Positions 4,207-56,129 are shown, counted from the stretch's first letter. The stretch: 64,000 bases of DNA from an uncultured Thermoanaerobaculia bacterium (GCA_964423595.1 CAYRFI010000010.1:738-64737); one strand, 5' to 3'. Notes: generated from the letters alone by a model not told the origin. Numbers and translations are program-made.

Positions 4207-4238
4207 ATCATTCGTGTCGGCGCCAGGCACCTTTACCC

Positions 4239-4420
4239 TAACCCGCATATCTCACCAACTTCCTGCTGTGGGCGCCGATGCACCGCACCCAGCGGTGTTT
4301 TCTCGCCTCGGGGTGCTCCACGTACTGTTGAGTACGAGTCCGCGCCCCTCAGGTCGCAAACCCCACTGGGCACGGCACCTCGTCGCCCTCGCGATGAAAC
4401 CCGGTGAGATATGCGGGCTA
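4239..4420 (+). repeat. foldback intergenic repeat, complete copy A (182 bp, MITE-like)
   Basis: Ends are TAACCCGCATATCTCACC ... GGTGAGATATGCGGGCTA (18-nt inverted termini, 1 mismatch). The arms stay complementary down to the tip hairpin CGTACT-GTTG-AGTACG (4321-4336). Lies between convergent genes. Confidence 0.9.
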
Positions 4421-9757: not shown

Positions 9758-11098
9758 ATGAAAGGCGAGATCCAGTACGCTGCCAGCCGCGACGGCCAGT
9801 CGGTGGCTTACCAGACGTGCGGTGAAGGTCCGTTGGACCTCGTCTTCGTGCCGGACTGGGTCGGCAATCTGGAAGTGATGTGGGAAGACCCGACCCTCGC
9901 GGCCTTTCTCGAGCGCATGGCCCGATTCGCGCGGGTGATCTGCTTCGACAAGCGCGGTACCGGCCTGTCGGACCCGGTCCCGCTCGGTGCGATCCCGACC
10001 TGGGAGGAGTGGATGTACGACGTCGCCACCGTGATGGACGCGGCTGACAGCCGTCAGGCGGCGATCTTCGGCCACGGCGACGGCGCGACAATGGCCCTGC
10101 TCTTTGCCGCTACCCATCCGGATCGGGCGTCAGCGTTGATCCTCGCGGACGCCTACGCGAGGCGCATGCGGTCCGAGGACTATCCGTGCGGCGTCCCCGA
10201 GGACGTGGCTCCGCAACTCATCGAGGCGATCCTGAATGCGTGGGGCACCGGCGAGGCCACGCGTGGGGGGGGAGCCCCGAGCCTGGCTGGAGACGAGTCC
10301 TTTGTCGCGTGGCGCGGACGTTTCGAGCGCCTGGCCATGAGTCCCGGGCAGTTCAACGCGGTCTACCCGCTGACCTACACGTTCGACCTCCGCTGGGTGC
10401 TGCCGACGATCCGCATGCCGACTCTGGTGCTCCACCGCACCGGCAACCGCTACGTGGTCGTCGGCAACGGACGCCACCTGGCCGAGCACATCGACGGTGC
10501 GCGATTCGTGGAGATTCCCGGTTCGGACCACTTCTTTCACGCTGGCGACCCGGAAGCGATGCTGGGACCCGTGCAGGAGTTTCTGACCGGGCGCCGTGCG
10601 CCTCCTGAACCGGAGCGTGTCTTGGCGACGGTCCTGTTCACCGATATCGTCGGCGCGACCGCTACGGCGGAGCGGCTCGGAGACGGCGCGTGGCGCGAGC
10701 TGCTCGAGCGGCACCACGCGATCGTCCGCCGCGAGCTCGCCCATTTCGGCGGCCGCGAGATCGACACCGCTGGAGATGGGTTTCTGGCGTCCTTCGAAGG
10801 CCCCGCCCGCGGCGTGCGATGCGCGATGGCGATCCGCGACGGGTTGCGGCCCGTCGGCCTCGAGATCCGTGCCGGTCTCCACACCGGCGAGTGCGAACGG
10901 TCCGGTGACAAGCTCGCTGGGATCGCCGTGCACATCGGCGCGCGGGTGGCCGGTCTGGCGGAGGGGGGCGAGGTGCTGGTGTCGAGGACGGTCAAGGACC
11001 TGGTCGCGGGGTCCGGACTCACCTTTGTCGATCGGGGCGACCACGAGCTGAAAGGTGTCAGTGATCGGTGGCAGCTTTTCCGGGCCGAGGAGGGATAG
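9758..11098 (+). CDS. alpha/beta-hydrolase fused to class III adenylate/guanylate cyclase
   Basis: N-terminal alpha/beta-fold region (FGHGDGATMALLFAA, nucleophile-elbow-like with Asp in the serine position). The C-terminal cyclase domain starts at VLATVLFTDIVGATA and contains KTAGDGFLA-like (DTAGDGFLASF) and GLHTGE motifs. Confidence 0.9.
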   Translation: MKGEIQYAASRDGQSVAYQTCGEGPLDLVFVPDWVGNLEVMWEDPTLAAFLERMARFARVICFDKRGTGLSDPVPLGAIPTWEEWMYDVATVMDAADSRQAAIFGHGDGATMALLFAATHPDRASALILADAYARRMRSEDYPCGVPEDVAPQLIEAILNAWGTGEATRGGGAPSLAGDESFVAWRGRFERLAMSPGQFNAVYPLTYTFDLRWVLPTIRMPTLVLHRTGNRYVVVGNGRHLAEHIDGARFVEIPGSDHFFHAGDPEAMLGPVQEFLTGRRAPPEPERVLATVLFTDIVGATATAERLGDGAWRELLERHHAIVRRELAHFGGREIDTAGDGFLASFEGPARGVRCAMAIRDGLRPVGLEIRAGLHTGECERSGDKLAGIAVHIGARVAGLAEGGEVLVSRTVKDLVAGSGLTFVDRGDHELKGVSDRWQLFRAEEG

Positions 11099-11161
11099 CC
11101 CACATCATGGGTGCGACGCACTCGAAAAGGTGCCCGAAACCGAACGCGGGATTCGAGGCGC

Positions 11162-11704
11162 CTATTCGCCGCGCTTGAGCACCGACCGTTTGTCCGAGTA
11201 GGCGAGGCGGGCCTGGATGAAATCTTCGTGGGCGAAGCCGAGCTCGCTGGCGATCTGGCGGATCTGCTCCTCTTCGTCCCCGGTGACCAGATCGTCGGCG
11301 GCCGACACCGCAAACAGGCAGTCCAGCAGCTCGTGCCGCTGCTCGTCGGTGGCGATCTCCCGGAACTCCCGGGTCACGAGAAAGTCTTCTGTTCCGCCGA
11401 AGAGCTTGTTCTGGTGCTTGGCGATGGCGACGACCAACACTGCCTGCTCCTCGGGGATGTGCCCCAGGCGCTGGACGATCTCGACCATCTTCTCCGTTTC
11501 GACGTCGCTGATGTGCAGGTCGGCCGCGGCCACACGGCTGAGGACATACGCGAACGCCGCAAGGAACCGCGCGTGTGAACGGTCCAGGCGATCGAGCTCA
11601 CCAACGATTCGCCGCACCGTTTCGGTTTCGCCGCGAACCGGTTCGGGCGCCGGATCCGACCGCGCGGCGGAAGGCCCAAGCCCGAGTAACTCGAGGATAC
11701 CCAT
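11162..11704 (-). CDS. TerB-family (tellurite-resistance TerB-like) protein
   Basis: ATG at 11704 (MGILELL...). The track's longer TTG start at 11743 lies inside a repeat terminus. Paired-helix TerB-like segments (AAFAYVLSRVAAAD...E..K, LLDCLFAVSAADD...EE..I). Confidence 0.7.
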   Translation of the reverse strand: MGILELLGLGPSAARSDPAPEPVRGETETVRRIVGELDRLDRSHARFLAAFAYVLSRVAAADLHISDVETEKMVEIVQRLGHIPEEQAVLVVAIAKHQNKLFGGTEDFLVTREFREIATDEQRHELLDCLFAVSAADDLVTGDEEEQIRQIASELGFAHEDFIQARLAYSDKRSVLKRGE

Positions 11705-11717
11705 CGCAAACTGGATT

Positions 11718-11856
11718 CTAACCCAGCCTGCATATCTCACCAACTATTTGCTGCGACCGGAAATCTGCAGCAATCTGCGGCGTTTGCTTCCATCGGAGTG
11801 CTCGACGTACTGCAAGTACGCGCTCCGCGCCCTGCGAGGCTTGGCCGGGGCCCCCA
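11718..11856 (+). repeat. foldback repeat, truncated long-form left arm C
   Basis: CTAACCCAGCCTGCATATCTCACCAACTATTTGCTGCG... then GTGCTCGACGTACTGCAAGTACGCGCTCCGCGCCCTGCGAGGCTTGGCCGGGGCCCCCAG, nearly identical to 30551-30611 of copy G. No right arm. Confidence 0.85.
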
Positions 11857-11889
11857 GATCAGCCCTTGGGAGCGGACGCATCACGCAGT

Positions 11890-13578
11890 TCAAGGCCGGT
11901 AGCCCTGGCCACGAAGGACTTTTCCCGGCAGCTTGCCGGTCGCCTTGCCCTCATCAATCACGGGAACTCCGTTCACCAGCACGTATTGCATCCCTTGTGA
12001 AAGCTGGTTGGGTTTTTCGAAGGTCGCAAGATCGCGCACGGTTTCCGGGTCGAAGACCACGACATCAGCCCACATCCCGCCTTTCAGGACGCCCCGGTCG
12101 TTGAAACGCATGCGTTGAGCGGCCAGCGAGGTGAATTTGCGAATGGCGTCTTCCAGGGTCAATTTCTTTTCCTCGCGAACATATTTTCGGAGAATTCGCG
12201 GGAAGGTTCCGTACGCTCGCGGATGCGGCACGTCCTGGCCCAGGATTCCCTCCGGCGCCGTGCCTTCCGAATCGTTGTTGATGGAGACCCATGGCTGGAC
12301 CAGCGCTAGCGCCACGTCATCTTCCGACATTCCAAATACGGCCACCGAGGTGTCGGCGTCGTCCTGGATCAGGAGGTCGAAGATTGTGTCGATGGGATCT
12401 GTGCCCCACATCTCGGAGATATCGGCGATGGTCTGACCCTGCAGTGACATCAGATCCGGATTGTGCACGGCGCCTACCAGAATCGCTTCCGGTCCCTCGA
12501 TCTCGTCCCACTCATTGTCCCATTCGTCGCTGGGCGTCATCATGTCCTCCCGAATTCTCTCGCGCGTGGCCGGATCTTTCAGGCGATCGAGGAGTTGATC
12601 CGTTCCTCCGTCATGAGCCCAGGGCGGTATGAATGCGGAGAGCGGGTTGAACCATGCAGTGTAGGCATAGGTGTCGGCGCTGATGTCCACTCCGGCCTGC
12701 CGCGCGCGGTTGATGTGCGCGACGATCTCCGGCATGCGGCCGAAATTCTTCGTCCCCGCCACCTTCAGGTGCCAGATTTCCACCGGGATCTTTGCCTCCC
12801 GCCCGATCCTGATGGCCTCGTCCAGTGCGGGAATGATCGCATCTCCTTCACTGCGAACGTGTGTTGCGTAAATGCCCCCGTACTGCGCAGCCACGGAGGC
12901 CAGAGCGATCAGCTCTTCCGTATGTGCATACGGCGCCGGCGGATATTCCAGCGATGTCGAAACGCCAACCGCGCCGTCCCTCATACCATCTTCGACCAGC
13001 TTCTTCATGGCGTTCAGCTGGGAATCCGTAGGCTGGATATCCGCATCTCCCAGAACCACCCGGCGCACCTGAGTCGCCCCGACATAGGTTGCCAGATTGA
13101 TTCCCATGCCCTGTTTTTCCAGTCGTGCGAAGTATTCTCGGAGGGTCTTCCAGTCGAGATCGATGCCGTAGTGCTCGTAATACGAGCGGTCGGTTTTCAG
13201 GATGGCGTCATTCTGAGGCGCCGCGGAACCGCCTTCACCCGTGACCTCCGTCGTGATTCCCTGGAAGATTTTGGAGGGCAGCTGCGGGTTCACGAGTATC
13301 GTCATCTCCGATTGACCCAGCATGTCGATGAACCCCGGAGCAACCACAAGCCCATGTGCGTCGATCACCTCGCCGGCCTCGGCATCCGACAGGTTCCCGA
13401 TCGTCGCAATCTTGCCGCCTCGGATTCCGATGTCACCTGAATACCAGGGCGAGCCGGTCCCATCGATGATGTGGCCGTTGCGGATGACAACGTCGTACTC
13501 CGCGGCGACTGCGGATGGAAGTGTCCCCACCAACAGCCAGAGGATGATGAATGACATGGAATAATACCGTCGAGCCAT
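11890..13578 (-). CDS. amidohydrolase, N-acyl-D-amino-acid deacylase (D-aminoacylase) family, secreted
   Basis: ATG at 13578 follows GGAGGA. Signal peptide MARRYYSMSFIILWLLVGTLPSAVAA. Family hallmarks: YDVVIRNGHIIDGTG, PGFID, YATHVRSEG, VEIWHLK. Confidence 0.85.
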   Translation of the reverse strand: MARRYYSMSFIILWLLVGTLPSAVAAEYDVVIRNGHIIDGTGSPWYSGDIGIRGGKIATIGNLSDAEAGEVIDAHGLVVAPGFIDMLGQSEMTILVNPQLPSKIFQGITTEVTGEGGSAAPQNDAILKTDRSYYEHYGIDLDWKTLREYFARLEKQGMGINLATYVGATQVRRVVLGDADIQPTDSQLNAMKKLVEDGMRDGAVGVSTSLEYPPAPYAHTEELIALASVAAQYGGIYATHVRSEGDAIIPALDEAIRIGREAKIPVEIWHLKVAGTKNFGRMPEIVAHINRARQAGVDISADTYAYTAWFNPLSAFIPPWAHDGGTDQLLDRLKDPATRERIREDMMTPSDEWDNEWDEIEGPEAILVGAVHNPDLMSLQGQTIADISEMWGTDPIDTIFDLLIQDDADTSVAVFGMSEDDVALALVQPWVSINNDSEGTAPEGILGQDVPHPRAYGTFPRILRKYVREEKKLTLEDAIRKFTSLAAQRMRFNDRGVLKGGMWADVVVFDPETVRDLATFEKPNQLSQGMQYVLVNGVPVIDEGKATGKLPGKVLRGQGYRP

Positions 13579-35730: not shown

Positions 35731-37254
35731 CTAGGGCAATTCGAAGGTGTCGTCGTACCTGTGTTGCGAATTGTCGCGAATGCCGCCGTCGGCGACGCTT
35801 CGCGTGTACCACTCGTCCCAGGGATAGTCGTAGCCATTGACGGTGAGCCGGTTGTCCAGTTTCCAAATACCCGGAGTCTGAATGACCACGTTTCCGGCCT
35901 CTTTGCGCTGTGACCATTTGTTCACGTCGCCGGTCAGGGTCGCAAGGCCGTCCTTGACTGTAACTCCGATGTCGTCGTGCACCCACCAGGTGGTCCAGTT
36001 CCACGTCAGCCGGCTCTTGATTTCCTTGGTCAGCTCCGCGTCACTCTTCCAGTCTGTCCGGGCGACGGCGATCTCGTTGATGACTTGTCTCACTCCCTTC
36101 ACGCCAGCTGCGAGCTCGCCGGCGTGGAATTTCTGGTACCAGGTATGGACGCGGCCGGAGAGTGTGACGATGCCGTTGATTGCCGTGGCTTGGAGATCGA
36201 ACGCCCCGACGGTGGAGTCAGTATCGAGGTCGAACTGGACGTCGACTTTGATCAGGGAGTCTTCGCGCGCGTCTACCCGTGCGAACAGGTTGTTGGTGAC
36301 CCATCCCACTCCGACGACGTCGCGCGTGTCCATTTCGGCGATTCGCTTCTCATATTGATTGGGAACCGAACCGTCCAGGACCACGTGCCCTCGAGTCACC
36401 CTCGCGGTAATGTCAGAATTGATGAGCCGCCAGTCCTGATCCAGCTCCGCCCGGACAGCATTTCGCAGGTCGGAGTCCGAGAGAGCAGGTATGGTGTCGC
36501 GCACACCTTTATTCTGGATCCAATTCACATTGAGAAGATTGTTGACCCCACGGACGTCGGAGATCCAGCGGACGGCGTCTCCCGCGTGGTCCTTTTCAAA
36601 TGCGTTGCCCACCGTGCCGGTGAGAGTAACGATTCCCTCGTTGACAGAAACCGTGATCGGCAGGCCGCTCGTGTATACGTCCCGCGCGAGGGAAGCTACC
36701 GCGTCGTTCTTGACCTCTTGATCAGTTCGTGTGACGGCCGAAAGGGTCCTCAGGTTGTTGATGACCTCGCTCACGCCACGAACGCCGCCGGCAAGCAGGC
36801 CAGCTTCTTCCCATTCGGACCACGAGTCGACCTCGCCGGAAAGCGTGACGTGTCCGCCAAGAGAGGCGACCGAGATGTTTTCCGAATTGATGACCGCACT
36901 GTTGAGGATGCGTCTGCGCACCACCGACTCGATGTCCGCGTCCGACCGCCAGCCCGACTCCACGGTGATCTGGTTGACAACGCCGAGGACGCCTGTGATC
37001 TTCTTTGCCTCTCGCTCCGCGTATTGCTTCGCAGTGAGGTTGTCCGCGTCACCAGACAGGGTGACGATTCCGTCACTGGTGGTAACCGTGATTCTGGATG
37101 CGTCGACGCGCTCGTCCTGAAGCAGAGCGGATCTGACCCAATAGCTGATGTCGGCGTCGGCGGCCTTGTCGGCGGCGAACGAGGGTACGGCCAGGACCAG
37201 CCCGAGGACGACCGTCCCGATCGCCGCGACGGCGAAACCTCGTTTCGTGTTCAT
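35731..37254 (-). CDS. secreted protein with six tandem BON domains
   Basis: ATG at 37254 follows AAGGAG. Signal peptide MNTKRGFAVAAIGTVVLGLVLAVPSFA. Six ~65-aa repeats each contain the BON core (..V.V..G.VTL.G.V......A......V.GV..V.N.L.V). Confidence 0.9.
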   Translation of the reverse strand: MNTKRGFAVAAIGTVVLGLVLAVPSFAADKAADADISYWVRSALLQDERVDASRITVTTSDGIVTLSGDADNLTAKQYAEREAKKITGVLGVVNQITVESGWRSDADIESVVRRRILNSAVINSENISVASLGGHVTLSGEVDSWSEWEEAGLLAGGVRGVSEVINNLRTLSAVTRTDQEVKNDAVASLARDVYTSGLPITVSVNEGIVTLTGTVGNAFEKDHAGDAVRWISDVRGVNNLLNVNWIQNKGVRDTIPALSDSDLRNAVRAELDQDWRLINSDITARVTRGHVVLDGSVPNQYEKRIAEMDTRDVVGVGWVTNNLFARVDAREDSLIKVDVQFDLDTDSTVGAFDLQATAINGIVTLSGRVHTWYQKFHAGELAAGVKGVRQVINEIAVARTDWKSDAELTKEIKSRLTWNWTTWWVHDDIGVTVKDGLATLTGDVNKWSQRKEAGNVVIQTPGIWKLDNRLTVNGYDYPWDEWYTRSVADGGIRDNSQHRYDDTFELP

Positions 37255-37340
37255 GATGAACTCCTTTCCGTCATCCATGACCCATGTCAGATCCCCGCGT
37301 ACCGGCCCGACGCCGGTCCATCGGGGCGCTGATGGGACTA

Positions 37341-37358
37341 GGCAAGGGCCATGCCAGG
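37341..37358 (-). promoter_or_regulatory. sigma-54 (-24/-12) promoter candidate for the 6xBON gene
   Basis: The minus strand reads CTGGCATGGCCCTTGCC, versus the consensus YTGGCACGrNNNTTGCW. GG-N10-GC spacing is exact. It ends about 87 nt upstream of ATG 37254. Confidence 0.55.
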
Positions 37359-37590
37359 TCGCAGATTCACTGGGCGCGGTGTTTTTCGCTTCCGGCCCCC
37401 CCAAGGCGGTGGCTCGAATCGACCACAATCGGCTGAAATGCTGCACCTCCCGTCGGCCGCGCATCCTATCGTACAGAGCAGGCGCCGCGAACCGGCGATC
37501 GTCGCAGAACCCGGTCGCCATGGGCTCTCCGCGTGTCGTGTCGCATCATCGGCGGAGCTTCGGTCGGCCCCGAGAGCCGGGAGTCGGAAG

Positions 37591-37607
37591 CTGGCACGGT
37601 ATTGGCA
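37591..37607 (+). promoter_or_regulatory. sigma-54 (-24/-12) promoter candidate for htrA
   Basis: CTGGCACGGTATTGGCA. The -24 element is perfect (TGGCACG), the -12 is TGGCA (GC conserved), and GG-N10-GC spacing is exact. About 52 nt upstream of ATG 37659. Confidence 0.55.
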
Positions 37608-37658
37608 AGGAGCGGGAGGTGCCGGCGGTCTTTCACCGTTCGGCACGGAGGTGACACG

Positions 37659-39428: not shown

Positions 39429-41720
39429 CTAGGACTCGGCCTCCTCTTGTTCGCGGGATTGCATGAGCACGCGCGCGACCGCGAGGACGAGCGGGACGAC
39501 GCCGAGCAGCAGGAACGTACCGTCAGCTGCGGCGCGAGCCCACTCGAGCTTGTGGAACGTGCCGCTCATCAGGAAGGTGAGCCGCCGGGCGTGCCAGTAG
39601 CCGTTTTGCAGAACGTCCCAAAGCTGCAGCACTCCCGCCGGAAACAAATCCAGCGCCACCATCGCCGCGAGCCCGGCGTTCAGCCCCCAGAAGCTGACCT
39701 TGATCAATCGTTCCACGCGCGCCCAGGTCTCGTCCGTTGCGAGCGAGCGCAGGCAGAAGATCACAACCGCCAGCGCCAACATCCCGAACACCCCGAACAG
39801 CGCTGCATGCCCATGGTTGCTCGTCAGGTTCGTGCCAATCTCGAAATAGGAAACGATCGGCAGGTTGATCAGAAAGCCGAAGACCCCGGCCCCGACGAAG
39901 TTCCAGAAGCCGACCGCCATCAGAAAGTAGATCGCCCAGCGGTGTTTTTCGGCAAACGTCTGCTGGCAGTCCTCGCACCGCCGGTCGCGAAGACGAATGA
40001 ACTGCCACGCGTCGAGGGTGAGGACGGTGAGCGGAACTACCTCGAGCGCCGAGAAACACGCGGCCAGGCCCATGTTGAGGGTTCCCTGGCCCGTGAAGTA
40101 CCAGTGGTGTCCGGTCCCAACGATTCCTCCGGCCAGGTAGAGGATGGCATCCAGGTAGATGACCCGCGTGGCCGTCCGGGACGTGACGAGCCCCAACACC
40201 ACGAACATCACGGCGACAAGCACAGTCGCGAACAGTTCGAAGAAGCCTTCCACCCACAGGTGAATGATCCAGAAGCGCCAGTTGTCGATGATGGCGTAGT
40301 TGGTGTGTGGACCGAAGAACAGTGCCGGGAGATAGAAGAGCGGGATCGCCGCCGCCGCGTAAAGAAAGAGGGAGGCCAGCTCCGTCCGCTGCCGGTCGCG
40401 AATGGCCGGGCGCAGCGCACGGTACATCAGGACCAGCCAACCGGCGAGCCCCGCTGCCAGAAGTAGTTGCCAGAAACGCCCGAGGTCCAGGTACTCCGAT
40501 CCCTGGTGGCCGAGCCAGAACCACAGTTCACCCAAGCGGTTGTTGATGCCCAGCCACTCGCCACCGAGGCTTCCGAAGACGACGACGGCGAGGGCGATGA
40601 GCAGCGCGAAGACACCGGTCCGCTGTCGTCGTGGTTCTGTACCCCCGACGATCGGCGCGAGGAAAAGACCGCCGGCCACCCAGGAGGTGGCAATCCAGAA
40701 GATGGCGAGCTGGAGGTGAAACGTCCGCAGCAGGTTGTAGGGAAGAAGCTGAGCGAGGTCGATGCCGTAGAAGGCGCCCGACTCGACTCGATAGTGGGCG
40801 AGGGCGCCGCCCGCCAGGGCTTGCAGCAGGAAGAGCAGCGCGACGACGCCGAAGTAGAGGCCGGTCGCCCTCTGACTCGGTGTGACCGTCCAGCCGGCGA
40901 ACGCGCTGTCGTGCTTATGTCCGGCCTTGGGTGAGCCATGCCAACCGAGGAAGTCGAAACGCCCGAACGCGAACAATACCGCACCCAGGCCGACCAGGAG
41001 GGTCACGAGGCTGAGCGCGCTCCAGAGGTAGGTGGAGGAACTCGGGCGGTTGCCGACGGCCGGCTCGTACGGCCAGTTGTTGGTATAGGAGTAATCCTTC
41101 CCCGGGCGGTTTGCGACGGTGGCCCAGGCCGCCCACGCGAAATATGAGGTGAGGTCCTCCAGCTCGCCGGAATCGCGGATGTAGTTCGCGGGCAGACCCG
41201 GCGCGCTGGATTCGCCTGCGAAATACGCGGCCCATTCGCCCTTCTGGATCTTCCAGGCGGCCATTTCACCGGCGGAAAACGCCAGTGAACCAGTGCTTGG
41301 ATCGTAGCGATTCTCTTTGAGTGATGCGCGGACGGCGGCGTCGACGGCCGTGGCCGCATCCTCATCGAGCCCCATGTACGGGCGCCCGTGGCGCTCGCGG
41401 GCCCACGTATCCCGCGCGATCTCGACCAGCCGGTGCAGGTACTCGGCGCTGAAGTCCGGGCCAAGGTACGCCCCGTGGCCCCAGAGAGTCCCATGCTCCA
41501 TCAGACCGTACTTGAAGAATATTTCCTGACCGTGCTCGATGTCCTCCTGAGTGAAGAGGGTCGCCCCCGAAGGCTCGGTCACGCGCGCAGGGATCGGCGG
41601 CGCATTTGTGTACGTCAGGACGGTGACGATCGTCAAGAGGGTGAAACCGAAGATCATTACGAGGAGGGTGGCGTGCCGCCACCACGGCGACAACCGCGCC
41701 TCTGCCAGATTGTTTGCCAT
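39429..41720 (-). CDS. norZ: quinol-dependent nitric-oxide reductase (qNOR, single-subunit NorB/NorZ type)
   Basis: 764 aa from ATG 41720. Haem-copper-oxidase-like core with HLWVEGFFE, GHHWYFTG and HGHAALFGVFG histidine motifs. The N-terminal fused domain has one TM and no CxxCH haem c motif, which is the qNOR architecture. Confidence 0.9.
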   Translation of the reverse strand: MANNLAEARLSPWWRHATLLVMIFGFTLLTIVTVLTYTNAPPIPARVTEPSGATLFTQEDIEHGQEIFFKYGLMEHGTLWGHGAYLGPDFSAEYLHRLVEIARDTWARERHGRPYMGLDEDAATAVDAAVRASLKENRYDPSTGSLAFSAGEMAAWKIQKGEWAAYFAGESSAPGLPANYIRDSGELEDLTSYFAWAAWATVANRPGKDYSYTNNWPYEPAVGNRPSSSTYLWSALSLVTLLVGLGAVLFAFGRFDFLGWHGSPKAGHKHDSAFAGWTVTPSQRATGLYFGVVALLFLLQALAGGALAHYRVESGAFYGIDLAQLLPYNLLRTFHLQLAIFWIATSWVAGGLFLAPIVGGTEPRRQRTGVFALLIALAVVVFGSLGGEWLGINNRLGELWFWLGHQGSEYLDLGRFWQLLLAAGLAGWLVLMYRALRPAIRDRQRTELASLFLYAAAAIPLFYLPALFFGPHTNYAIIDNWRFWIIHLWVEGFFELFATVLVAVMFVVLGLVTSRTATRVIYLDAILYLAGGIVGTGHHWYFTGQGTLNMGLAACFSALEVVPLTVLTLDAWQFIRLRDRRCEDCQQTFAEKHRWAIYFLMAVGFWNFVGAGVFGFLINLPIVSYFEIGTNLTSNHGHAALFGVFGMLALAVVIFCLRSLATDETWARVERLIKVSFWGLNAGLAAMVALDLFPAGVLQLWDVLQNGYWHARRLTFLMSGTFHKLEWARAAADGTFLLLGVVPLVLAVARVLMQSREQEEAES

Positions 41721-42168
41721 GCCTTTTCCCTTTCTCACCGCACGATAGGAGAAATCAGCACAGGGAATTCCCCGGCCGCCGGGCACTCGGGGTTGAAGTT
41801 TGGCGCGACCGCTGCGAAGGCAAGTGGTCTTGGCTCACCGCACGGCCTCGCTTTCATCCCCCTTTTGGGGGTGCCCGAACGAGCCGTGGAAGAAAACTGG
41901 TCGTCGCATCGAGCCCTGAACGGCGGCACCGACCGCCGCACGTCGAACGAGTGTTTCACGGCCGCTGTCCCTCTGTAAAGGTCGTTTACTACGGGTGATC
42001 TGCTCCCCGAATATTGGGAACTCTCATATCTCAAAACAGGCTGATTTTGACAAAGAACGCAAACGACTGAGGAAGGTTCGGCGGGGAGCCATGTTTCGCG
42101 TTGTTCCATGCATGCACCGTGCACGCGTGAGAGCCACGCGCCATACCGTGACGTCGTGAACGGGGGCA

Positions 42169-49758: not shown

Positions 49759-50175
49759 TCAGGCTGTGCGGGTTTGCTCGGGTGGTCCGCCCGCGACCGG
49801 CTTTCCCAGGGCTGCGGCCGCCCGCAGAACCACTTCGCGCAGGTCTTCGACGTGAAACGGTTTGGCGACGAAATCGAAGGCGCCCTTCTCCATCGCCTCA
49901 CGGGCCAGGGACATCATCGCGAATGCCGATATCACGATGACCTTGGTCCGGGGCGACCTTTTCATGGCATGCTCGAGCACCTGGACGCCGGTGGCCTCCT
50001 TCATCACGACATCGGTGATGATGACGTCGAATTCCTTCTCGTCGATACGATCGAGCGCCTGGAGAGGATCGACAAAGGTCTCCACGGTGCACCCGATTTT
50101 GGTGAGGGCCTGCTTCAGCCTCTTGCCGACGGTGGGCTCGTCGTCGAGGACCATGACCTCCAGGGTTGGTGACAT
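49759..50175 (-). CDS. stand-alone response-regulator receiver (REC-only)
   Basis: ATG at 50175 follows GGGAGGAAG. Receiver residues are present (DDEP acidic pair, phospho-acceptor D in IITDVVM, conserved Ser/Thr position, KPF). No output domain. Paralogue of 52657..53073. Confidence 0.9.
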   Translation of the reverse strand: MSPTLEVMVLDDEPTVGKRLKQALTKIGCTVETFVDPLQALDRIDEKEFDVIITDVVMKEATGVQVLEHAMKRSPRTKVIVISAFAMMSLAREAMEKGAFDFVAKPFHVEDLREVVLRAAAALGKPVAGGPPEQTRTA

Positions 50176-50240
50176 TTCTTCCTCCCGGTTAGCTTTCGAA
50201 TCGAGTGCCGTTTCGTTACCGTTCACACTCCTCGATCACG

Positions 50241-51065
50241 TCATCGCATCGAGACTGCAGCCCTGGCGAAGATGTCGTCGATCACATCGACCTCGACCTT
50301 CTCGACGTGCGGCACAGCCAGGGCCCTTTCCTTGATGACGGCGATTTTGTCGCCTTTTTTGGCGACCGCCTTGGCCTCGATGTGGATCGCGCCGTCGTCA
50401 GCGCGAACCACGACCTCCGGATCGATCTCGACGAGAACCGCTCGGACTTTGCTGGCCAGTGCGTAGTCGCGATATTGCTTGACGGAGTAGGTCATCGGTT
50501 TGAACCTGCGTTGCCGGGCCGTGTCGGCGATCAGCGCGGCGGCGTCCTCGCAGCCTGTCTCTCCCGTGTCGATCGCCAGGTCAAAGGTGGCCGTGTCGTC
50601 CTCGTTGACTTTGAAAAGAGCGGTCACCCAGCGTTGCCTTCGCTTGTCCAGGCTCAGAACCAGCTTGCGCGCTTTCGCCTCGCTGAGTTGCTGCTGTCGA
50701 GCAGCGGCCGCGGTCCTCGCCTCGAGCGGGGCACTGAGCCGGACCTTGAGGACGTGGGATATGCCGGTTACGTAGAGGTGAGCGGCCAGACCGTGGCACA
50801 CGCAGTTGCCCTCCAGCAGGAAGTCGGAAACGGCCGCCTGTATGGCGGAGAGGCGGATCCTGCGCTCTTTGACCGGCATCTGACGCCAGCCCGCCGGTTC
50901 GTCGAGGGCCTGAACCAGCTTGTCGGGCGGGATGTCATAGGTGCGCGCCGCGGCCTCAATGACCTCGTCGCGGCCGATGCTGCGGTACTGGAGGAGCGCG
51001 GCCGCCCGCACGGCTACCTCCTCGCCGCCGCTGAAGGGGGTGGCTGAAATGATGACCACTGACAT
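50241..51065 (-). CDS. cytidylate-kinase-like family protein (degenerate P-loop) with BON-like C-terminal domain
   Basis: N-terminus VVIISATPFSGGEEVAVRAAALL resembles the Cytidylate_kin2-type family, which has GSGG in place of GK[ST]. VLKVRLSAPLEARTAAAA and DxxRxxW segments. The C-terminal ~70 aa are BON-like (VVVRADDGAIHIEAKA...V..VEKVEVDV). Confidence 0.65.
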   Translation of the reverse strand: MSVVIISATPFSGGEEVAVRAAALLQYRSIGRDEVIEAAARTYDIPPDKLVQALDEPAGWRQMPVKERRIRLSAIQAAVSDFLLEGNCVCHGLAAHLYVTGISHVLKVRLSAPLEARTAAAARQQQLSEAKARKLVLSLDKRRQRWVTALFKVNEDDTATFDLAIDTGETGCEDAAALIADTARQRRFKPMTYSVKQYRDYALASKVRAVLVEIDPEVVVRADDGAIHIEAKAVAKKGDKIAVIKERALAVPHVEKVEVDVIDDIFARAAVSMR

Positions 51066-51110
51066 GTCCGTACTCCCTCCGTCGTCAGATCCGTTCGCGC
51101 TCTCGCTCCG

Positions 51111-52664
51111 TCAGAGCCGGGCGGGGATTGTTGTCACGGGCAGATGAACGATAAAGGTGCTGCCGGCTCCCACAGTGCTGGTCACGCTGATATTTCCTCC
51201 ATGACGGGCAACGATTCCCTGCGAAACCGACAGCCCGAGGCCGGTACCGCCGCGGTGACCTTCATCATGATGCTTGGTGGTGAAGAACGGGTCGAAGATC
51301 GAGGCCAGGAGGTGGGATGGGATGCCGGCGCCGGTGTCTGAGAATCGGACGGCAACGTACTTGGGATCGGCATCGGGTTCGGCGGCCAGCTCGATGCGTC
51401 CATCCCTGGGCGTGGCGTCGAGAGCGTTGAGAAGAAGGTTGAGAAAGACCTGAACGAGTTGCTTTGCGTCGCCGTGGATCCGCGGCAGGTTGGATGCGAC
51501 CTTGACCTCCAGCTTGACCGCGCTGAGATGGACCTGGTTTTGCGCCAGTTTGACGGTCTCGTTGACCAGCACCCCCAAATCAAGCGGCTCGATCCTGGCC
51601 TCGGACTCACGGGCGAAATCAAGGAGGTTGCTGATGATCCGGTCGCAGCGCTCCGCCTGGTCGACGACGTCGTCAACCATCTCTAGCTGCTCCTCTTCGG
51701 GCAGGGTGGCAAAGTCCTCCTTGAGGATCTGCGCGGTGAGGAGGATGTTGTTCACCGGGTTGTTCAGCTCATGCGCTACGCCTGCGGTCAACGTCCCCAG
51801 GGCTCGGAGCTTGTGAGTTTCGACCAGGATTGTTTGCTGCTCCTGCAGGTCCTTGGACATACGATTGAGGGCCACCGCGAGATCGGTAAACTCGTCCCGG
51901 TACCTCCGCGCGGGGACGATCGGGGTGAAGTCCGCGGCCGCGATGCGCGACGTGTAGGCCACGAAGCGGTCGAGCGGCCGGACGATGCGCCGGACCAGGA
52001 CGTGGGAGGTGATGACGATCACCAGCAGCAGGACGACCAGGAAGTAGATCGGGAAGGTCCTCGACCAGCGCAGCATGCCATGGACCGCCTGCCGTTCGCG
52101 TGCCACCAGGTCGGTGGCGAACTGTACCACCGACGCTCCTTCAGTGCGGATATCGGCCTCGTTGTCGGCTACTTCCGCCGGTGATGCGCGGCCCGCCTTT
52201 GCCGCCGCGGACAGGTCCTCCAGCAGTTCCAGATATTTTTCCGAGCGCGGGCGCATGGTTTCGAACCTCGTCTCGCCGATCACGCTGCGCAGCTGCTCGG
52301 AGTTGGCCATCAAGAGGCCGTGCGCGACCCGCATGTGTTCGAGAGCCTCGTCAAGGCCGGTTTGGTAGAGAAAGAAGTTCTTTTCATAGCGGCGAGCCTG
52401 CTGGATCTCGAACAAATAGCTATCGGCGATTTCAAGGAAATGGAGCTTTTCCTGAATCCGGAAGGCGGTGAGGATCCACAGGAAGTTGACGGCCAGGGCG
52501 AGGATGAAGCAGAGCGTAAAGCCGGTCGCGATGAGATTCCGCACGCTGAAGCGGGGACGGGAGTTCAGGGTTTCGGAATCGCCCTCCCGCTGCGGGAGCG
52601 CAGCCGCCGTCGGACCGGGTCCCGTCGCGGATTCGTCGCGATCGTGGGCGGCCGACTCAGCCAT
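51111..52664 (-). CDS. sensor histidine kinase (2 TM, periplasmic helical sensor, HAMP, HisKA, HATPase_c)
   Basis: H-box AGVAHELNNP, N-box NLLLNALDA, G1 DTGAGI, G2 GTGLGLS. Two TM segments flank a ~150-aa helical domain. A HAMP domain follows TM2. The start overlaps the upstream RR gene by 8 nt. Confidence 0.9.
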   Translation of the reverse strand: MAESAAHDRDESATGPGPTAAALPQREGDSETLNSRPRFSVRNLIATGFTLCFILALAVNFLWILTAFRIQEKLHFLEIADSYLFEIQQARRYEKNFFLYQTGLDEALEHMRVAHGLLMANSEQLRSVIGETRFETMRPRSEKYLELLEDLSAAAKAGRASPAEVADNEADIRTEGASVVQFATDLVARERQAVHGMLRWSRTFPIYFLVVLLLVIVITSHVLVRRIVRPLDRFVAYTSRIAAADFTPIVPARRYRDEFTDLAVALNRMSKDLQEQQTILVETHKLRALGTLTAGVAHELNNPVNNILLTAQILKEDFATLPEEEQLEMVDDVVDQAERCDRIISNLLDFARESEARIEPLDLGVLVNETVKLAQNQVHLSAVKLEVKVASNLPRIHGDAKQLVQVFLNLLLNALDATPRDGRIELAAEPDADPKYVAVRFSDTGAGIPSHLLASIFDPFFTTKHHDEGHRGGTGLGLSVSQGIVARHGGNISVTSTVGAGSTFIVHLPVTTIPARL

Positions 52665-53073
52665 CCGCGAGGGTCTCCTCCCCGGTCTGTGGCAGCTCCA
52701 GCTCGACGCCGAGCTCCGCGGCGGCGTTGGCGATCATTTCACGCAGCTGGCCCGGCTTGAACGGCTTGGCGAGGAAATCGAATGCCCCCTTGGCGAGAGC
52801 TTCCCGCGCCACTTCCATAGTGGCGTAGCCGGTGATCATGATCACCTTGGTATCCGGAGAGCGCCGAAGGACGTGCTCCAACACGCTGATGCCATCGATG
52901 TCATCCATGCGGATGTCCGTGACGATGATATCGAATGCGCTCTCCTCGAGGCGGGCAAGGGCGGCCTTCGGGTCGGTAAACGACTCGGTTTCGCAGCCCA
53001 TCTTGGCGATTGCCGGTCCGAGGCGCTTGCCCACGATGGGTTCGTCATCCAGTATCAGTACCCGTAAAGACAT
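52657..53073 (-). CDS. stand-alone response-regulator receiver (REC-only)
   Basis: ATG follows AGGAGG. DDEP acidic pair, D in IVTDIRM, KPF. No output domain. Confidence 0.9.
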   Translation of the reverse strand: MSLRVLILDDEPIVGKRLGPAIAKMGCETESFTDPKAALARLEESAFDIIVTDIRMDDIDGISVLEHVLRRSPDTKVIMITGYATMEVAREALAKGAFDFLAKPFKPGQLREMIANAAAELGVELELPQTGEETLADG

Positions 53074-53100
53074 TGTCGCCTCCTTTTGACTGTACGGCTA

Positions 53101-54195
53101 TCAGGACGCCGGTGACGGGATCCGGGCGACCGCGATCGTGCGCTGCAGCTTCCTTCGCTGCCGGTAGGCGCGGAAGACCTGGAGCAGGATCAAACCACAG
53201 CCGCCGATACCGCTGACGTACAGAACCACCTTACTGGCGTTATTGAAATAGACATCCCAGGCAGGGGCGAATGACAACACATCGAGCTGCCTCAGGTACA
53301 TCGGGATGGCAATGCCGCGGCTGATCACGCACAGCAGAATAATGAGCGCCGTGACCATCCGGATGTACTTCTCGCTCACCACCTTCACCCCATAGGCGCC
53401 GAGGTGAACACCGACCAGCGACCCGAGGTACATCAGCAATGTCAAACGAATGTCGACGTATCCGGCCCACGCGTAGTTCAGCGCGCCGAAGGCGCCCATG
53501 AAGATGGCGGTGTAGAGCTCGGTGCCGGTGGCCACCGCGGTCGGTATCCCGAACACATAGATCATGGCCGGCACCCCGATGAATCCACCGACCCCGATGG
53601 TCCCGGCCAGATAACCGGTGGCCAGACCCACGATGAGCACGATCCACAGCGACACGCGGACGTCGGCGACTTTGAAGTAGATCATCGGCGGCAAGTTGAA
53701 CCGCGCCAGGAAGTCGGCGATACGACGAGACGGGCCGGCCACGTCGCCACCGCCCCGCCGCAGGTCGCCCAGCATGGACAGGGCCACCACCGACAGCACA
53801 CACACGAAGACAAGGCTGATGTACAGGTTGGCGCCGGCGCCGCTGGCGGCATGTGAATCCACACCACCTTCGAACAGGAGGCTGCTGACCATCACCGCCA
53901 GCCGAATCCCGGCGAACGCGGTAAGCAGCAGGAACGCCGCCAACTTCTTGTCGACGTTGCCCATCTTGCCGTGCTGGCGTGAGCCGACCATCGCCTTACC
54001 GAACTTGTGGGTGATGTTGCTGCCGACCGCGACGACGCCCTGGACGCCGAGGTTCATCATCCCAGGCGTCATGAAGAAAGCTCCGCCGCTGCCGATGAAA
54101 CCGCTCAGGGTGCCGCCCACGAACCCGAGCCCGATCACCTGAACGGCGGTCAAGGCGTCGAGGTGGATGAAGATGCCGGCGATAGGCCAATCCAT
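53101..54195 (-). CDS. TSUP (TauE/SafE) family anion permease
   Basis: Polytopic membrane protein with two internally repeated halves, each starting with G-x-GGG-type motifs (GFIGSGGAFFMTPGM; GTIGVGGFIGVPAMIY). It is longer than I would expect for this family, because of a central insertion. Confidence 0.8.
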   Translation of the reverse strand: MDWPIAGIFIHLDALTAVQVIGLGFVGGTLSGFIGSGGAFFMTPGMMNLGVQGVVAVGSNITHKFGKAMVGSRQHGKMGNVDKKLAAFLLLTAFAGIRLAVMVSSLLFEGGVDSHAASGAGANLYISLVFVCVLSVVALSMLGDLRRGGGDVAGPSRRIADFLARFNLPPMIYFKVADVRVSLWIVLIVGLATGYLAGTIGVGGFIGVPAMIYVFGIPTAVATGTELYTAIFMGAFGALNYAWAGYVDIRLTLLMYLGSLVGVHLGAYGVKVVSEKYIRMVTALIILLCVISRGIAIPMYLRQLDVLSFAPAWDVYFNNASKVVLYVSGIGGCGLILLQVFRAYRQRRKLQRTIAVARIPSPAS

Positions 54196-54245
54196 TTCTT
54201 ACCCCCTTCTCCGCGTCGCGGCCTCTAGCCTTGCCCCGGGCCGCT

Positions 54246-55784
54246 TCACTCGAACCTCAGCCACTTCAGAATCAGCCCTGCGACACTGCCGTACAGGGCG
54301 GCGACCACCGGCACGGTTACCGCCACGGCCAGGGTCGCGGCGAACCGCCAGCTCTCCCATTCCGGGCCGCCCAGAAAGTTGAGGATGAATTGTTGATAGT
54401 TGAATACAAGCGCGTAGATCACGGCCACTGCGGCCAAAGAGATCGCGAGACTGAGGATTTGCCGCTTGTCGAAGAGAAAACTTCTGCGGAGCTCACTCGC
54501 GTTCAGGACCGAAACCCGGGTTCCCTCCCGAATCGCGCCGCACAGCTCCCTGGCGAGGCGGACTCGCGACGACTCGCCCTTCGTCAGGAAGACCTCTCCG
54601 ACAACCACCAGCGAATAGTTGGGTTGAGCGCGTAGGGTGTGGACCACCTGCTCCGCTCCCCCCATCAGCATCCGGCTGCCCCCGAAGAGACTGTCATGGA
54701 TCAGGGCCTCGGAGGTCGCGGCGATTCCGCCGTCTGGGGCGTGCGCGGTATCGGCGATGTCCTCCTCGATCCCACCGGTGGCGTCGGTCGTCTTGGGCAC
54801 GTAGCCGATTGGGCGCGGCGGCTCGGCCCCCGGCGCCTCCGCCTCCGAGCCTGCCTCGTTGTCTGGGGTTTCCGGCAGAATCAGGCGCACCAGCTCCACC
54901 GCAGCCCCCCAGCGGTGGGCGAGGTCGGTAATCTCGCTGTATGCCGGGGAGAGGGGATCGAAGGACTCTGCGACCCACATGAGGTTCGTGACCGCCATCG
55001 TGGAGACGATCTGTCGGGCTCCTTCGAGCTCGGCCAAGGATGCGGGGATCGCCTCGCCGACCTGAGCCTCGGCGGGCATGTAGGTGACGGTGACCTGCCC
55101 CTCTCGGGCAGAAACGTTCAAGTCGGCCCAGGCCGTTCGCTCGTCCCGGCCGAGCCGCTCGCGGGCGCGAGTGGCCAGGCAAAGATCGTCCATGATCCGT
55201 CTCGAGGCCGGCGTCGGCTGGAACTCCGGCAGCTGGGCCATTGCGCAGGTGGTGGCGGACGCGCTGGAGAGTCCGATCTGTTCCAGATTGAGCATCAGGT
55301 CATAGAGGTAGGGATCGTTCATGTCGACGCCGTGAGCGAAATGTACCCAGTTGGCGATGTCCTGGTCGATTTGGGTGATGTACTCGAGGGTTTTCTCGCG
55401 GCTCAGGTTGAGCCGGGTCATCGTCCTCGCCAGCCGCCGTTCCGCGTTCGGTACGACCCGCACCCGCAATACGTGGCTGATTCCCTGCAGGAGCAGATTG
55501 CCGGCCCGGCCGTGGTAGACGAGGTTCGGGCTCTTTCTGGACTGCTCGCAGATGGCGGAGGTGACGAAGGCGAGATACTGCGCCTTGTGCCGGGCGAGCC
55601 GCTCCTTGGGCAGGCCTTGCTTCAGCACAGCCATCTCCAGCCGACCGACTGGCACACCCGATTCGGTGGCTTGTTCGACGAGCTTCTCCCTGCTCAGGAC
55701 TGGGCAGTCCAACATACGGGCCAGGCTCTCGGCAAGCTCGCGCCGGAGCCCCTCGTCGACACTGGAAATGATCACAATGGCCAT
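54246..55784 (-). CDS. membrane-anchored cytidylate-kinase-like/BON-like multidomain protein
   Basis: ATG at 55784 follows GGAGAGAGG. The N-terminal ~200 aa are paralogous to 50241..51065 (HVLRVRVVPNAERRLARTM, ANWVHFAHGVD). A BON-like segment (LNVSAREGQVTVTYM...) and a Usp-like segment follow, then two C-terminal TM helices. Confidence 0.65.
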   Translation of the reverse strand: MAIVIISSVDEGLRRELAESLARMLDCPVLSREKLVEQATESGVPVGRLEMAVLKQGLPKERLARHKAQYLAFVTSAICEQSRKSPNLVYHGRAGNLLLQGISHVLRVRVVPNAERRLARTMTRLNLSREKTLEYITQIDQDIANWVHFAHGVDMNDPYLYDLMLNLEQIGLSSASATTCAMAQLPEFQPTPASRRIMDDLCLATRARERLGRDERTAWADLNVSAREGQVTVTYMPAEAQVGEAIPASLAELEGARQIVSTMAVTNLMWVAESFDPLSPAYSEITDLAHRWGAAVELVRLILPETPDNEAGSEAEAPGAEPPRPIGYVPKTTDATGGIEEDIADTAHAPDGGIAATSEALIHDSLFGGSRMLMGGAEQVVHTLRAQPNYSLVVVGEVFLTKGESSRVRLARELCGAIREGTRVSVLNASELRRSFLFDKRQILSLAISLAAVAVIYALVFNYQQFILNFLGGPEWESWRFAATLAVAVTVPVVAALYGSVAGLILKWLRFE

Positions 55785-56129
55785 GCCGTCACCTCTCTCC
55801 GTCGGATGTGGACGCCGCCTTGCGTTGGCGTCGCCATACTCGGGTAGCAGCTCGGGGCTCGATGACGTGCGCCGGTGGGAACTTCGCCTACCGGTCGCAC
55901 ACTTGGCTCCGGGCTCGGCGAGCGTAACAAGGCCGATCGCGCATATCAACATTATGAACCCGCAAGAAAACCCCTGTCGCAGAATCTGCGGAGAAGCGAG
56001 GCAGAGCGCGTGTGGTGATGGGGATGGTTACCCTGGCCGGATCGCACTCGGAAGATTTCCCCGGGATGAGAGGCGTAATGGAGGGCCTCGGCCTCCTGAA
56101 ACCGTGCCAGGTTTTGCGGAATCGATTGT

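Follow-up and report, generated by a model that had tools for sequence, protein, structure and literature searches.

In E. coli, degP is regulated by sigma-E and CpxR. The psp system has a single sigma-54 promoter, and pspF is transcribed from a sigma-70 promoter. To our knowledge, there has been hardly any experimental study of gene regulation in Acidobacteriota, and the sensing of periplasmic protein damage outside Proteobacteria is largely uncharted. Divergent sigma-54 promoters are known from the ZraSR/zraP system of E. coli and Salmonella, where they are driven by ZraR in a zinc-dependent envelope-stress response, and the enhancer (UAS) recognized by FhlA has the sequence CATTTCGTACGAAATG (both PMC4987338). 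Among proteins with BON domains, DolP has been described as binding phospholipid through its BON domains (PMC7806268).

We analyzed a stretch of 64,000 nucleotides, hereafter the window, in which a gene for a six-BON protein and an htrA gene are divergent and separated by a spacer of 404 bp. The comparisons described below make it likely, in our judgement with good confidence, that this spacer is a bidirectional sigma-54 control region with a shared enhancer. The locus contains the following features.

35731-37254, minus strand: six-BON gene, 507 aa; start ATG at 37254 after GGAAAGGAG; six Pfam BON domains (PF04972), E 2.3e-84
37356-37341, minus strand: predicted sigma-54 -24/-12 promoter of the BON gene, TGGCATGGCCCTTGCC; GG at 37355-37354, GC at 37343-37342
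37379-37389, no strand assigned: A/T-tract, GCGAAAAACAC on the BON strand, between the candidate enhancer and the predicted BON promoter, at about -49 to -59
37408-37426, no strand assigned: candidate enhancer (UAS) site A, imperfect palindrome GGTGGCTCGAATCGACCAC, conserved in alignments A2 and A5
37430-37447, no strand assigned: candidate enhancer site B, CGGCTGAAATGCTGCACC, with GG-TGA-AT invariant in six aligned loci
37455-37585, no strand assigned: fast-evolving spacer, 41% mean identity, holding the second TCGCAGA and GGCGA-N16-TCGCC
37592-37607, plus strand: predicted sigma-54 -24/-12 promoter of htrA, TGGCACGGTATTGGCA; GG at 37593-37594, GC at 37605-37606
37619-37646, plus strand: inverted repeat in the htrA leader, GTGCCGGCGG-N7-CCGTTCGGCAC, 79% mean identity
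37659-39158, plus strand: gene for an HtrA/DegP-type Do-family serine endopeptidase, 499 aa, with Trypsin_2 and two PDZ domains

The HtrA protein passed the TIGR02037 cut-off for the Do family (437.4 vs 416.2 bits). The N-terminus of the six-BON protein, MNTKRGFAVAAIGTVVLGLVLAVPSFAA, resembles a signal peptide, as in a secreted protein. This protein scored under the cut-offs of both the OsmY model NF007858 (125.8 vs 174 bits) and the DolP model NF008247 (65.4 vs 184 bits), and it is thus not an equivalog of either one; the solved structures nearest to it are OsmY (8rjx) and YraP/DolP (7a2d). Its close relatives come from metagenomes only, and the named nearest homologues, those of HtrA included, belong to Thermoanaerobaculales and Acidobacteria MAGs, which makes class Thermoanaerobaculia of the Acidobacteriota the most likely origin of the window. 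A mechanical ORF of the six-BON gene that reaches 37521 (596 aa) was rejected as an over-extension, because the ATG at 37254 and its Shine-Dalgarno sequence are kept among the relatives in the alignment. This conservation indicates that the real protein has ~507 aa and that public gene calls mask the regulatory region. In the related locus L058 (6001-7815), the JGI gene call P0003 (604 aa) likewise runs over the predicted promoter and the candidate enhancer. A gene for a quinol-type nitric oxide reductase (NorB with a fused cytochrome c-like domain; 39429-41786, minus strand) is convergent to htrA and is absent from the conserved neighbourhood of the relatives.

The initial annotation had placed one sigma-54-like 16-mer before each of the two genes, and both were confirmed at the coordinates and on the strands it gave, with the exact GG-N10-GC spacing. 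On the plus strand, positions 37340-37360 read aGGCAAGGGCCATGCCAGg, so that it is the minus strand that bears the BON motif. The distance from the end of the motif to the ATG is 86 bp for the BON gene and 51 bp for htrA, and the predicted transcription starts lie at ~37330 (minus, BON) and ~37618 (plus, htrA). Compared with TGGCACG-N4-TTGCW, the BON site has two mismatches and the htrA site has one; the -12 element of htrA is TGGCA instead of TTGCA.

One explanation for these motifs is that they are functionless chance matches in G+C-rich DNA. Shuffled sequence yields such matches about as often as the window does: the untailored consensus, with at most 2 mismatches, occurs 7 times in the whole window vs 8.55 times expected from shuffles, which is no enrichment, and the motif count by itself proves nothing for the window. 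A pattern tailored to both sites gave 2 matches vs 0.08 expected, in a test that is post hoc. When an ad hoc weighted score was applied, the two sites ranked best in the window (20.0 and 19.5), and all other window sites scoring at least 18.5 were found inside genes or directed into the 3' end of the BON gene. Both motifs face their neighbouring gene. It is the placement of the motifs that is non-random, and their conservation adds further to this. A sigma-70-like promoter was not found in the spacer, using a scan consensus of the E. coli type that may not fit this phylum.

Conservation was examined in relatives gathered by a metagenome scan with a single protein (3 loci) and by exact-protein look-ups, which together comprise nine distinct contigs among L053-L066 with BON proteins 63-93% identical to that of the window. 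In all nine, htrA lies divergently upstream of the six-BON gene across a spacer of 330-410 bp, and both motifs are present at matching distances. On the BON side, the motif reads TGGCA[CT][GA]-N4-TTGC[CG] in 9/9, with 84-90 bp between it and the ATG. On the htrA side, it reads TGGCA[CT][GA]-N4-[TC]T[GA]GCA, lies 51-52 bp before the ATG where the called gene boundary permits reading, and is in register across all ten rows of alignment A2. While the N4 bases differ (GGCC, GACC, GTCG, AGCC; GTAT, AGTA, GAGA, GGCT), GG and GC are invariant. Identity to the window is 100% for TTGC and 87% for TGGCAYG in the BON promoter, and 97% for each of the -24 and -12 blocks in the htrA promoter, vs a mean of 41% in the variable spacer (130 bp, from the enhancer block to the htrA promoter). 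This pattern fits functional -24/-12 elements. The initial annotation had made its reading depend on conservation of the motifs in relatives with the same gene pair, and we found them in register in every such relative. Chance matches would hardly stay in register in nine distinct relatives while the flanks fell to ~41% identity, and the aligned loci are not near-identical strains, as protein identity among them falls to 58-63%.

A sigma-54 motif is likewise found 52-67 bp ahead of the ATG where htrA orthologues (58-74% identical) stand in two other contexts. In L070/L071, htrA is 74% identical and has no BON neighbour, and the L070 motif, TGGCACGTGATTGGCA, lies 52 bp before the ATG. In L067-L069, L072, L073 and L074 (four further contexts; Thermoanaerobaculales/Acidobacteria), htrA, found at position 10001 or 4001 of the locus, is 58-61% identical and stands in the gene order BatD, GGDEF, htrA, DUF3467, LolA, Tgt, YajC, SecDF; all of these loci carry TGGCA[AG]G-N4-TTGCT, 56-67 bp before the htrA ATG. 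Because the motif is kept before htrA in these other contexts, htrA appears to be sigma-54-dependent across the lineage regardless of its neighbours. The more distant group has a different palindrome, GTGCCA[AG]ATTGGCAC, ~50 bp upstream of the -24 element, which suggests that it may use a diverged or different activator.

To extend the comparison beyond the lineage, we scanned one genome per species and obtained 52 distant six-BON loci (L001-L052) from many phyla, including Nitrospirae-like bacteria, Planctomycetota, Gammaproteobacteria, Gemmatimonadota, Acidobacteriota and others. The family of ~500 aa is ~50% identical across very distant phyla. In the zone from -150 to -30 of the 52 BON starts, there were 5 forward-strand motifs with a score of at least 19 vs 0.23 expected from the motif density within the same loci (P ~5e-6), and the reverse strand of the same zone had none. 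The five loci are from Holophagae (L013), Planctomycetota (L020, L024 and L045) and Cytophagia (L039), and in all of them the motif lies 69-94 bp from the BON ATG. No sigma-54 motif was found in the cyanobacterial six-BON loci L046 and L047, which fits the absence of RpoN from every cyanobacterial genome surveyed (PMC3372290). An HtrA gene is found at most a few kb from the six-BON gene in about one quarter of the distant loci, and this proximity suggests that the two proteins are functional partners. The recurrence of the motif before htrA in other contexts and, greatly exceeding the background, before six-BON genes of other phyla is also contrary to what chance would produce, and we consider it extremely unlikely that the two window motifs are chance matches.

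Some six-BON genes of these phyla adjoin genes for NtrC-type enhancer-binding proteins. L039, from a Cytophagia MAG, has a histidine kinase, a REC-Sigma54_activat-HTH_8 protein, an unannotated ORF, the sigma-54 motif, BON and HtrA, in this order. Among Planctomycetota, the loci L019, L025, L036 and L023 each combine a six-BON gene with linked genes for a HAMP kinase and an NtrC-type activator, which lie upstream of the six-BON gene in the first three. In L019, L025 and L023, a sigma-54 motif stands before a gene for a single-domain receiver, and the six-BON gene comes next; in L025 and L036, HtrA is downstream of the six-BON gene. The planctomycete activators (L019 3326-4753, L023 ~11049-12374, L025 1935-3302 and L036 2969-4420) have GAFTDA or GAYTDA in place of the canonical GAFTGA sigma-54-contact loop. 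L039 has its own, different candidate enhancers at 4147-4320, namely repeated TGTCAATTGACA-type palindromes and GTGTGGCG-N20-CGCCACAC, upstream of the sigma-54 motif of its BON-HtrA operon. A XylR-type enhancer-binding protein in L044 adjoins a dehydrogenase gene; it was set aside as probably unrelated to the BON gene.

The TGGCA...(T/G)GC blocks could instead be operators of a conventional transcription factor, with sigma-70 or ECF-type promoters that went unrecognised. The htrA site can be read as a TGGCA-N6-TGGCA direct repeat, for example by a dimer that reads TGGCA repeats; HtrA/DegP of E. coli is sigma-E/Cpx-dependent, and the sigma-70 scan used a crude consensus. However, what is invariant across the three htrA groups and the BON sites is GG-N10-GC with TGGCA and TTGC/TGGC flanks, and no TGGCA repeat is present in TGGCAAGGATCTTGCT or TGGCACGACCCTTGCC. 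Furthermore, the distance to the ATG is fixed, the motif always faces the gene, and genes for enhancer-binding proteins adjoin the same gene set in other phyla. An operator function for these blocks is therefore very unlikely. By comparison, we regard it as very likely that both motifs are functional sigma-54 promoters, and sigma-54 dependence itself is what we infer from their sequences. The core of the initial annotation, that divergent sigma-54 promoters co-regulate htrA and the six-BON gene under an activator encoded outside the window, is supported by the conservation of the motifs, both in relatives with the pair and in the other htrA contexts.

The region between the two promoters had been annotated with TCGCAGA repeats and a GGCGA-N15-TCGCC motif as possible enhancers. 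The TCGCAGA repeats are present, with one copy at 37359 as described and the second at 37502-37508 rather than at 37497; the GGCGA motif is also present, with a spacing of N16 (37494-37519) rather than N15. These elements fall where the spacer is unconstrained and are lost beyond the 93%-identical relative, and they were consequently rejected as enhancers. No conserved element was detected within 37455-37585 in alignment A2.

Apart from the promoters, strong conservation in the spacer is confined to one block, 37408-37447, with a mean identity of 74% to the relatives. Counted from the BON start, sites A and B are centred at about -87 and -108, respectively, and counted from the htrA start, at about -201 and -180, so that the two sites are ~21 bp apart, roughly two helical turns. 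The L054 version of site A is perfectly palindromic over 20 bp, GGTGGTCGAATTCGACCACC. L070, the htrA locus that lacks a BON gene, has a site-A equivalent, TGGTTCAAATCGACC, at about -200 from the htrA start and a perfect palindrome, TGGCTGATATCAGCCA, in the position of site B at about -180. Holophagae locus L013, whose six-BON gene has no htrA neighbour, has GGCGGTCGATTCCAGCCACC (70 bp) and TGGCTGAAAAT 40-70 bp upstream of its sigma-54 motif. These comparisons make it reasonably likely that 37408-37447 is the enhancer of the two promoters, and paired dimer-type sites two helical turns apart would suit an activator of the NtrC family with a Fis-type HTH. In some relatives, TGGCTGAAATGCTGCA reached a score of 17 as a candidate for a third sigma-54 promoter; its GC is not kept in L058 or L061, and it was therefore read as enhancer site B. 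When the enhancer palindrome was searched across the window for other members of the regulon, only noise at 5 mismatches was obtained.

The two promoters could also be true sigma-54 promoters that are regulated separately, with 37408-37447 serving one of them and a different enhancer or activator, the enhancer being non-conserved or remote, serving the other. Because the block holds its distance from the htrA promoter in the BON-less L070, it could be purely an htrA enhancer, while -87 and -108 are classic enhancer distances for the BON promoter, and enhancers work from either side and at a distance. Against such a division, 37408-37447 is the sole strongly conserved non-promoter block, and the 130 bp beside the htrA promoter are unconstrained. 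In addition, the similar sites upstream of the BON-side motif of L013 indicate that either gene, on its own, comes with sites of this kind. Separate regulation is in our view unlikely. As the spacer has only one conserved block, the evidence tilts slightly towards an enhancer that would be common to both arms.

The A/T-tract at 37379-37389 is partly conserved, with GAAAAAC in most relatives and a mean identity of 63%, and it may be an intrinsic bend or the site of a bending protein. On the other side, the inverted repeat of the htrA leader, whose sequence is strongly conserved, ends just before the Shine-Dalgarno sequence GGAGGTG (37647-37653). RNAalifold predicted a hairpin of 8 bp in this leader with no compensatory changes, and L061 breaks two of the pairs. 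The repeat may form a hairpin in the leader or act as a DNA operator just past the start site. A hairpin in the BON leader showed no compensatory changes either, and an Rfam search of the spacer and leaders gave nothing above noise. With neither an Rfam match nor covariation, a structured RNA in the htrA or BON leader found no support.

Consistent with the initial annotation, the window holds no gene for an enhancer-binding protein. Pfam scans found no Sigma54_activat domain in its large ORFs, GAFTGA, ELFGH and Walker-A signatures were found in none of its frames, and tblastn of the window with two enhancer-binding proteins matched two stand-alone receiver domains only. Neither rpoN nor an activator gene is present in the 64-kb window or in the contigs of the close relatives. 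All three Acidobacteria genomes in a published survey had RpoN (PMC3372290, Table 1). The receiver domains belong to a minus-strand neighbourhood at 49759-55952, in which two single-domain receiver paralogues (49759-50226 and 52657-53073, 55% identical) flank a HAMP histidine kinase (51111-52664), together with Cytidylate_kin2-family genes. We considered this kinase and the two receivers as the cognate sensor and rejected them, since comparison with the kinases linked to enhancer-binding proteins in other phyla gave generic similarity only (33-35% over the transmitter). In L058, L061, L062 and L065, Cytidylate_kin2 and P-type ATPase genes directly adjoin the six-BON gene, suggesting that this neighbourhood and that of the six-BON gene were probably once contiguous.

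In the mechanism that we propose, sigma-54 RNA polymerase would wait as closed complexes on both outward-facing -24/-12 elements. An AAA+ enhancer-binding activator encoded outside the window would bind sites A and B and, by DNA looping, would remodel the closed complexes at both promoters. On the BON side the loop would be short and may be aided by the A-tract, and on the htrA side it would span an unconstrained ~150 bp. One signal would thereby turn on the periplasmic protease-chaperone HtrA and the secreted six-BON protein together. By analogy with the linked genes of other phyla, a response regulator of the NtrC type is the probable activator. Envelope, osmotic or heat damage is the probable signal; we infer envelope stress from the nature of the products, and this guess is the weakest step of the proposal.

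The mechanism is textbook sigma-54 regulation, with nothing mechanistically new. What appears to be undescribed so far is this set of genes and the fact that it recurs across phyla. Full-text literature searches, with incomplete coverage, found no description of a sigma-54-dependent htrA or BON gene, and control of htrA or BON genes is mentioned neither in a comparative sigma-54 survey (PMC3162934) nor in a paper on the Desulfovibrio sigma-54 regulome (PMC4641369). We tentatively raise the possibility of a widespread undescribed regulon, in which an NtrC-type two-component activator and sigma-54, not sigma-E/Cpx, control six-BON and HtrA proteins. If this is true, the module recurs in Acidobacteriota (Thermoanaerobaculia and Holophagae), Planctomycetota and Bacteroidota (Cytophagia), and the six-BON protein would be a dedicated functional partner of HtrA. 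The conserved sigma-54 promoter of htrA provides a testable wiring, comprising predicted starts, an enhancer sequence and a two-gene output, and the DNA motif can be used to find the activator and the remaining regulon in complete genomes. The repeated linkage to HtrA and sigma-54 activators is also a functional lead for the widespread, uncharacterised six-BON family.

The locus shares individual traits with several described systems. Like OsmY and DolP, the BON protein of the window has BON domains, but it has six of them in ~500 aa, whereas OsmY and DolP have two. The htrA product belongs to the same family as E. coli DegP, the Do/DegP protease-chaperones with two PDZ domains; degP, however, is driven by sigma-E and CpxR, and htrA of the window by a predicted sigma-54 promoter. 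PspF/pspABCDE resembles the proposed system as a response to envelope or membrane damage that depends on sigma-54 and an enhancer-binding protein (listed in PMC4987338); pspA and pspF were not among the window genes scanned. The FhlA-controlled hyc/hyp genes also have divergent sigma-54 promoters with an activator on palindromic intergenic sites, but they differ in their formate hydrogenlyase function, in their UAS and in having a one-component activator. In zra, one arm encodes the sensor kinase and the activator, whereas here neither arm does so and none is encoded within the 64 kb; moreover, HtrA and a six-BON protein take the place of the CpxP-like ZraP, the enhancers have unrelated sequences, and the two systems come from different phyla. 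The likeness to zra lies in the architecture only, that is, in divergent sigma-54 promoters with candidate activator sites between them, and in the output, which in both cases includes a periplasmic protein-quality-control factor, zra being linked to envelope stress (PMC4987338).
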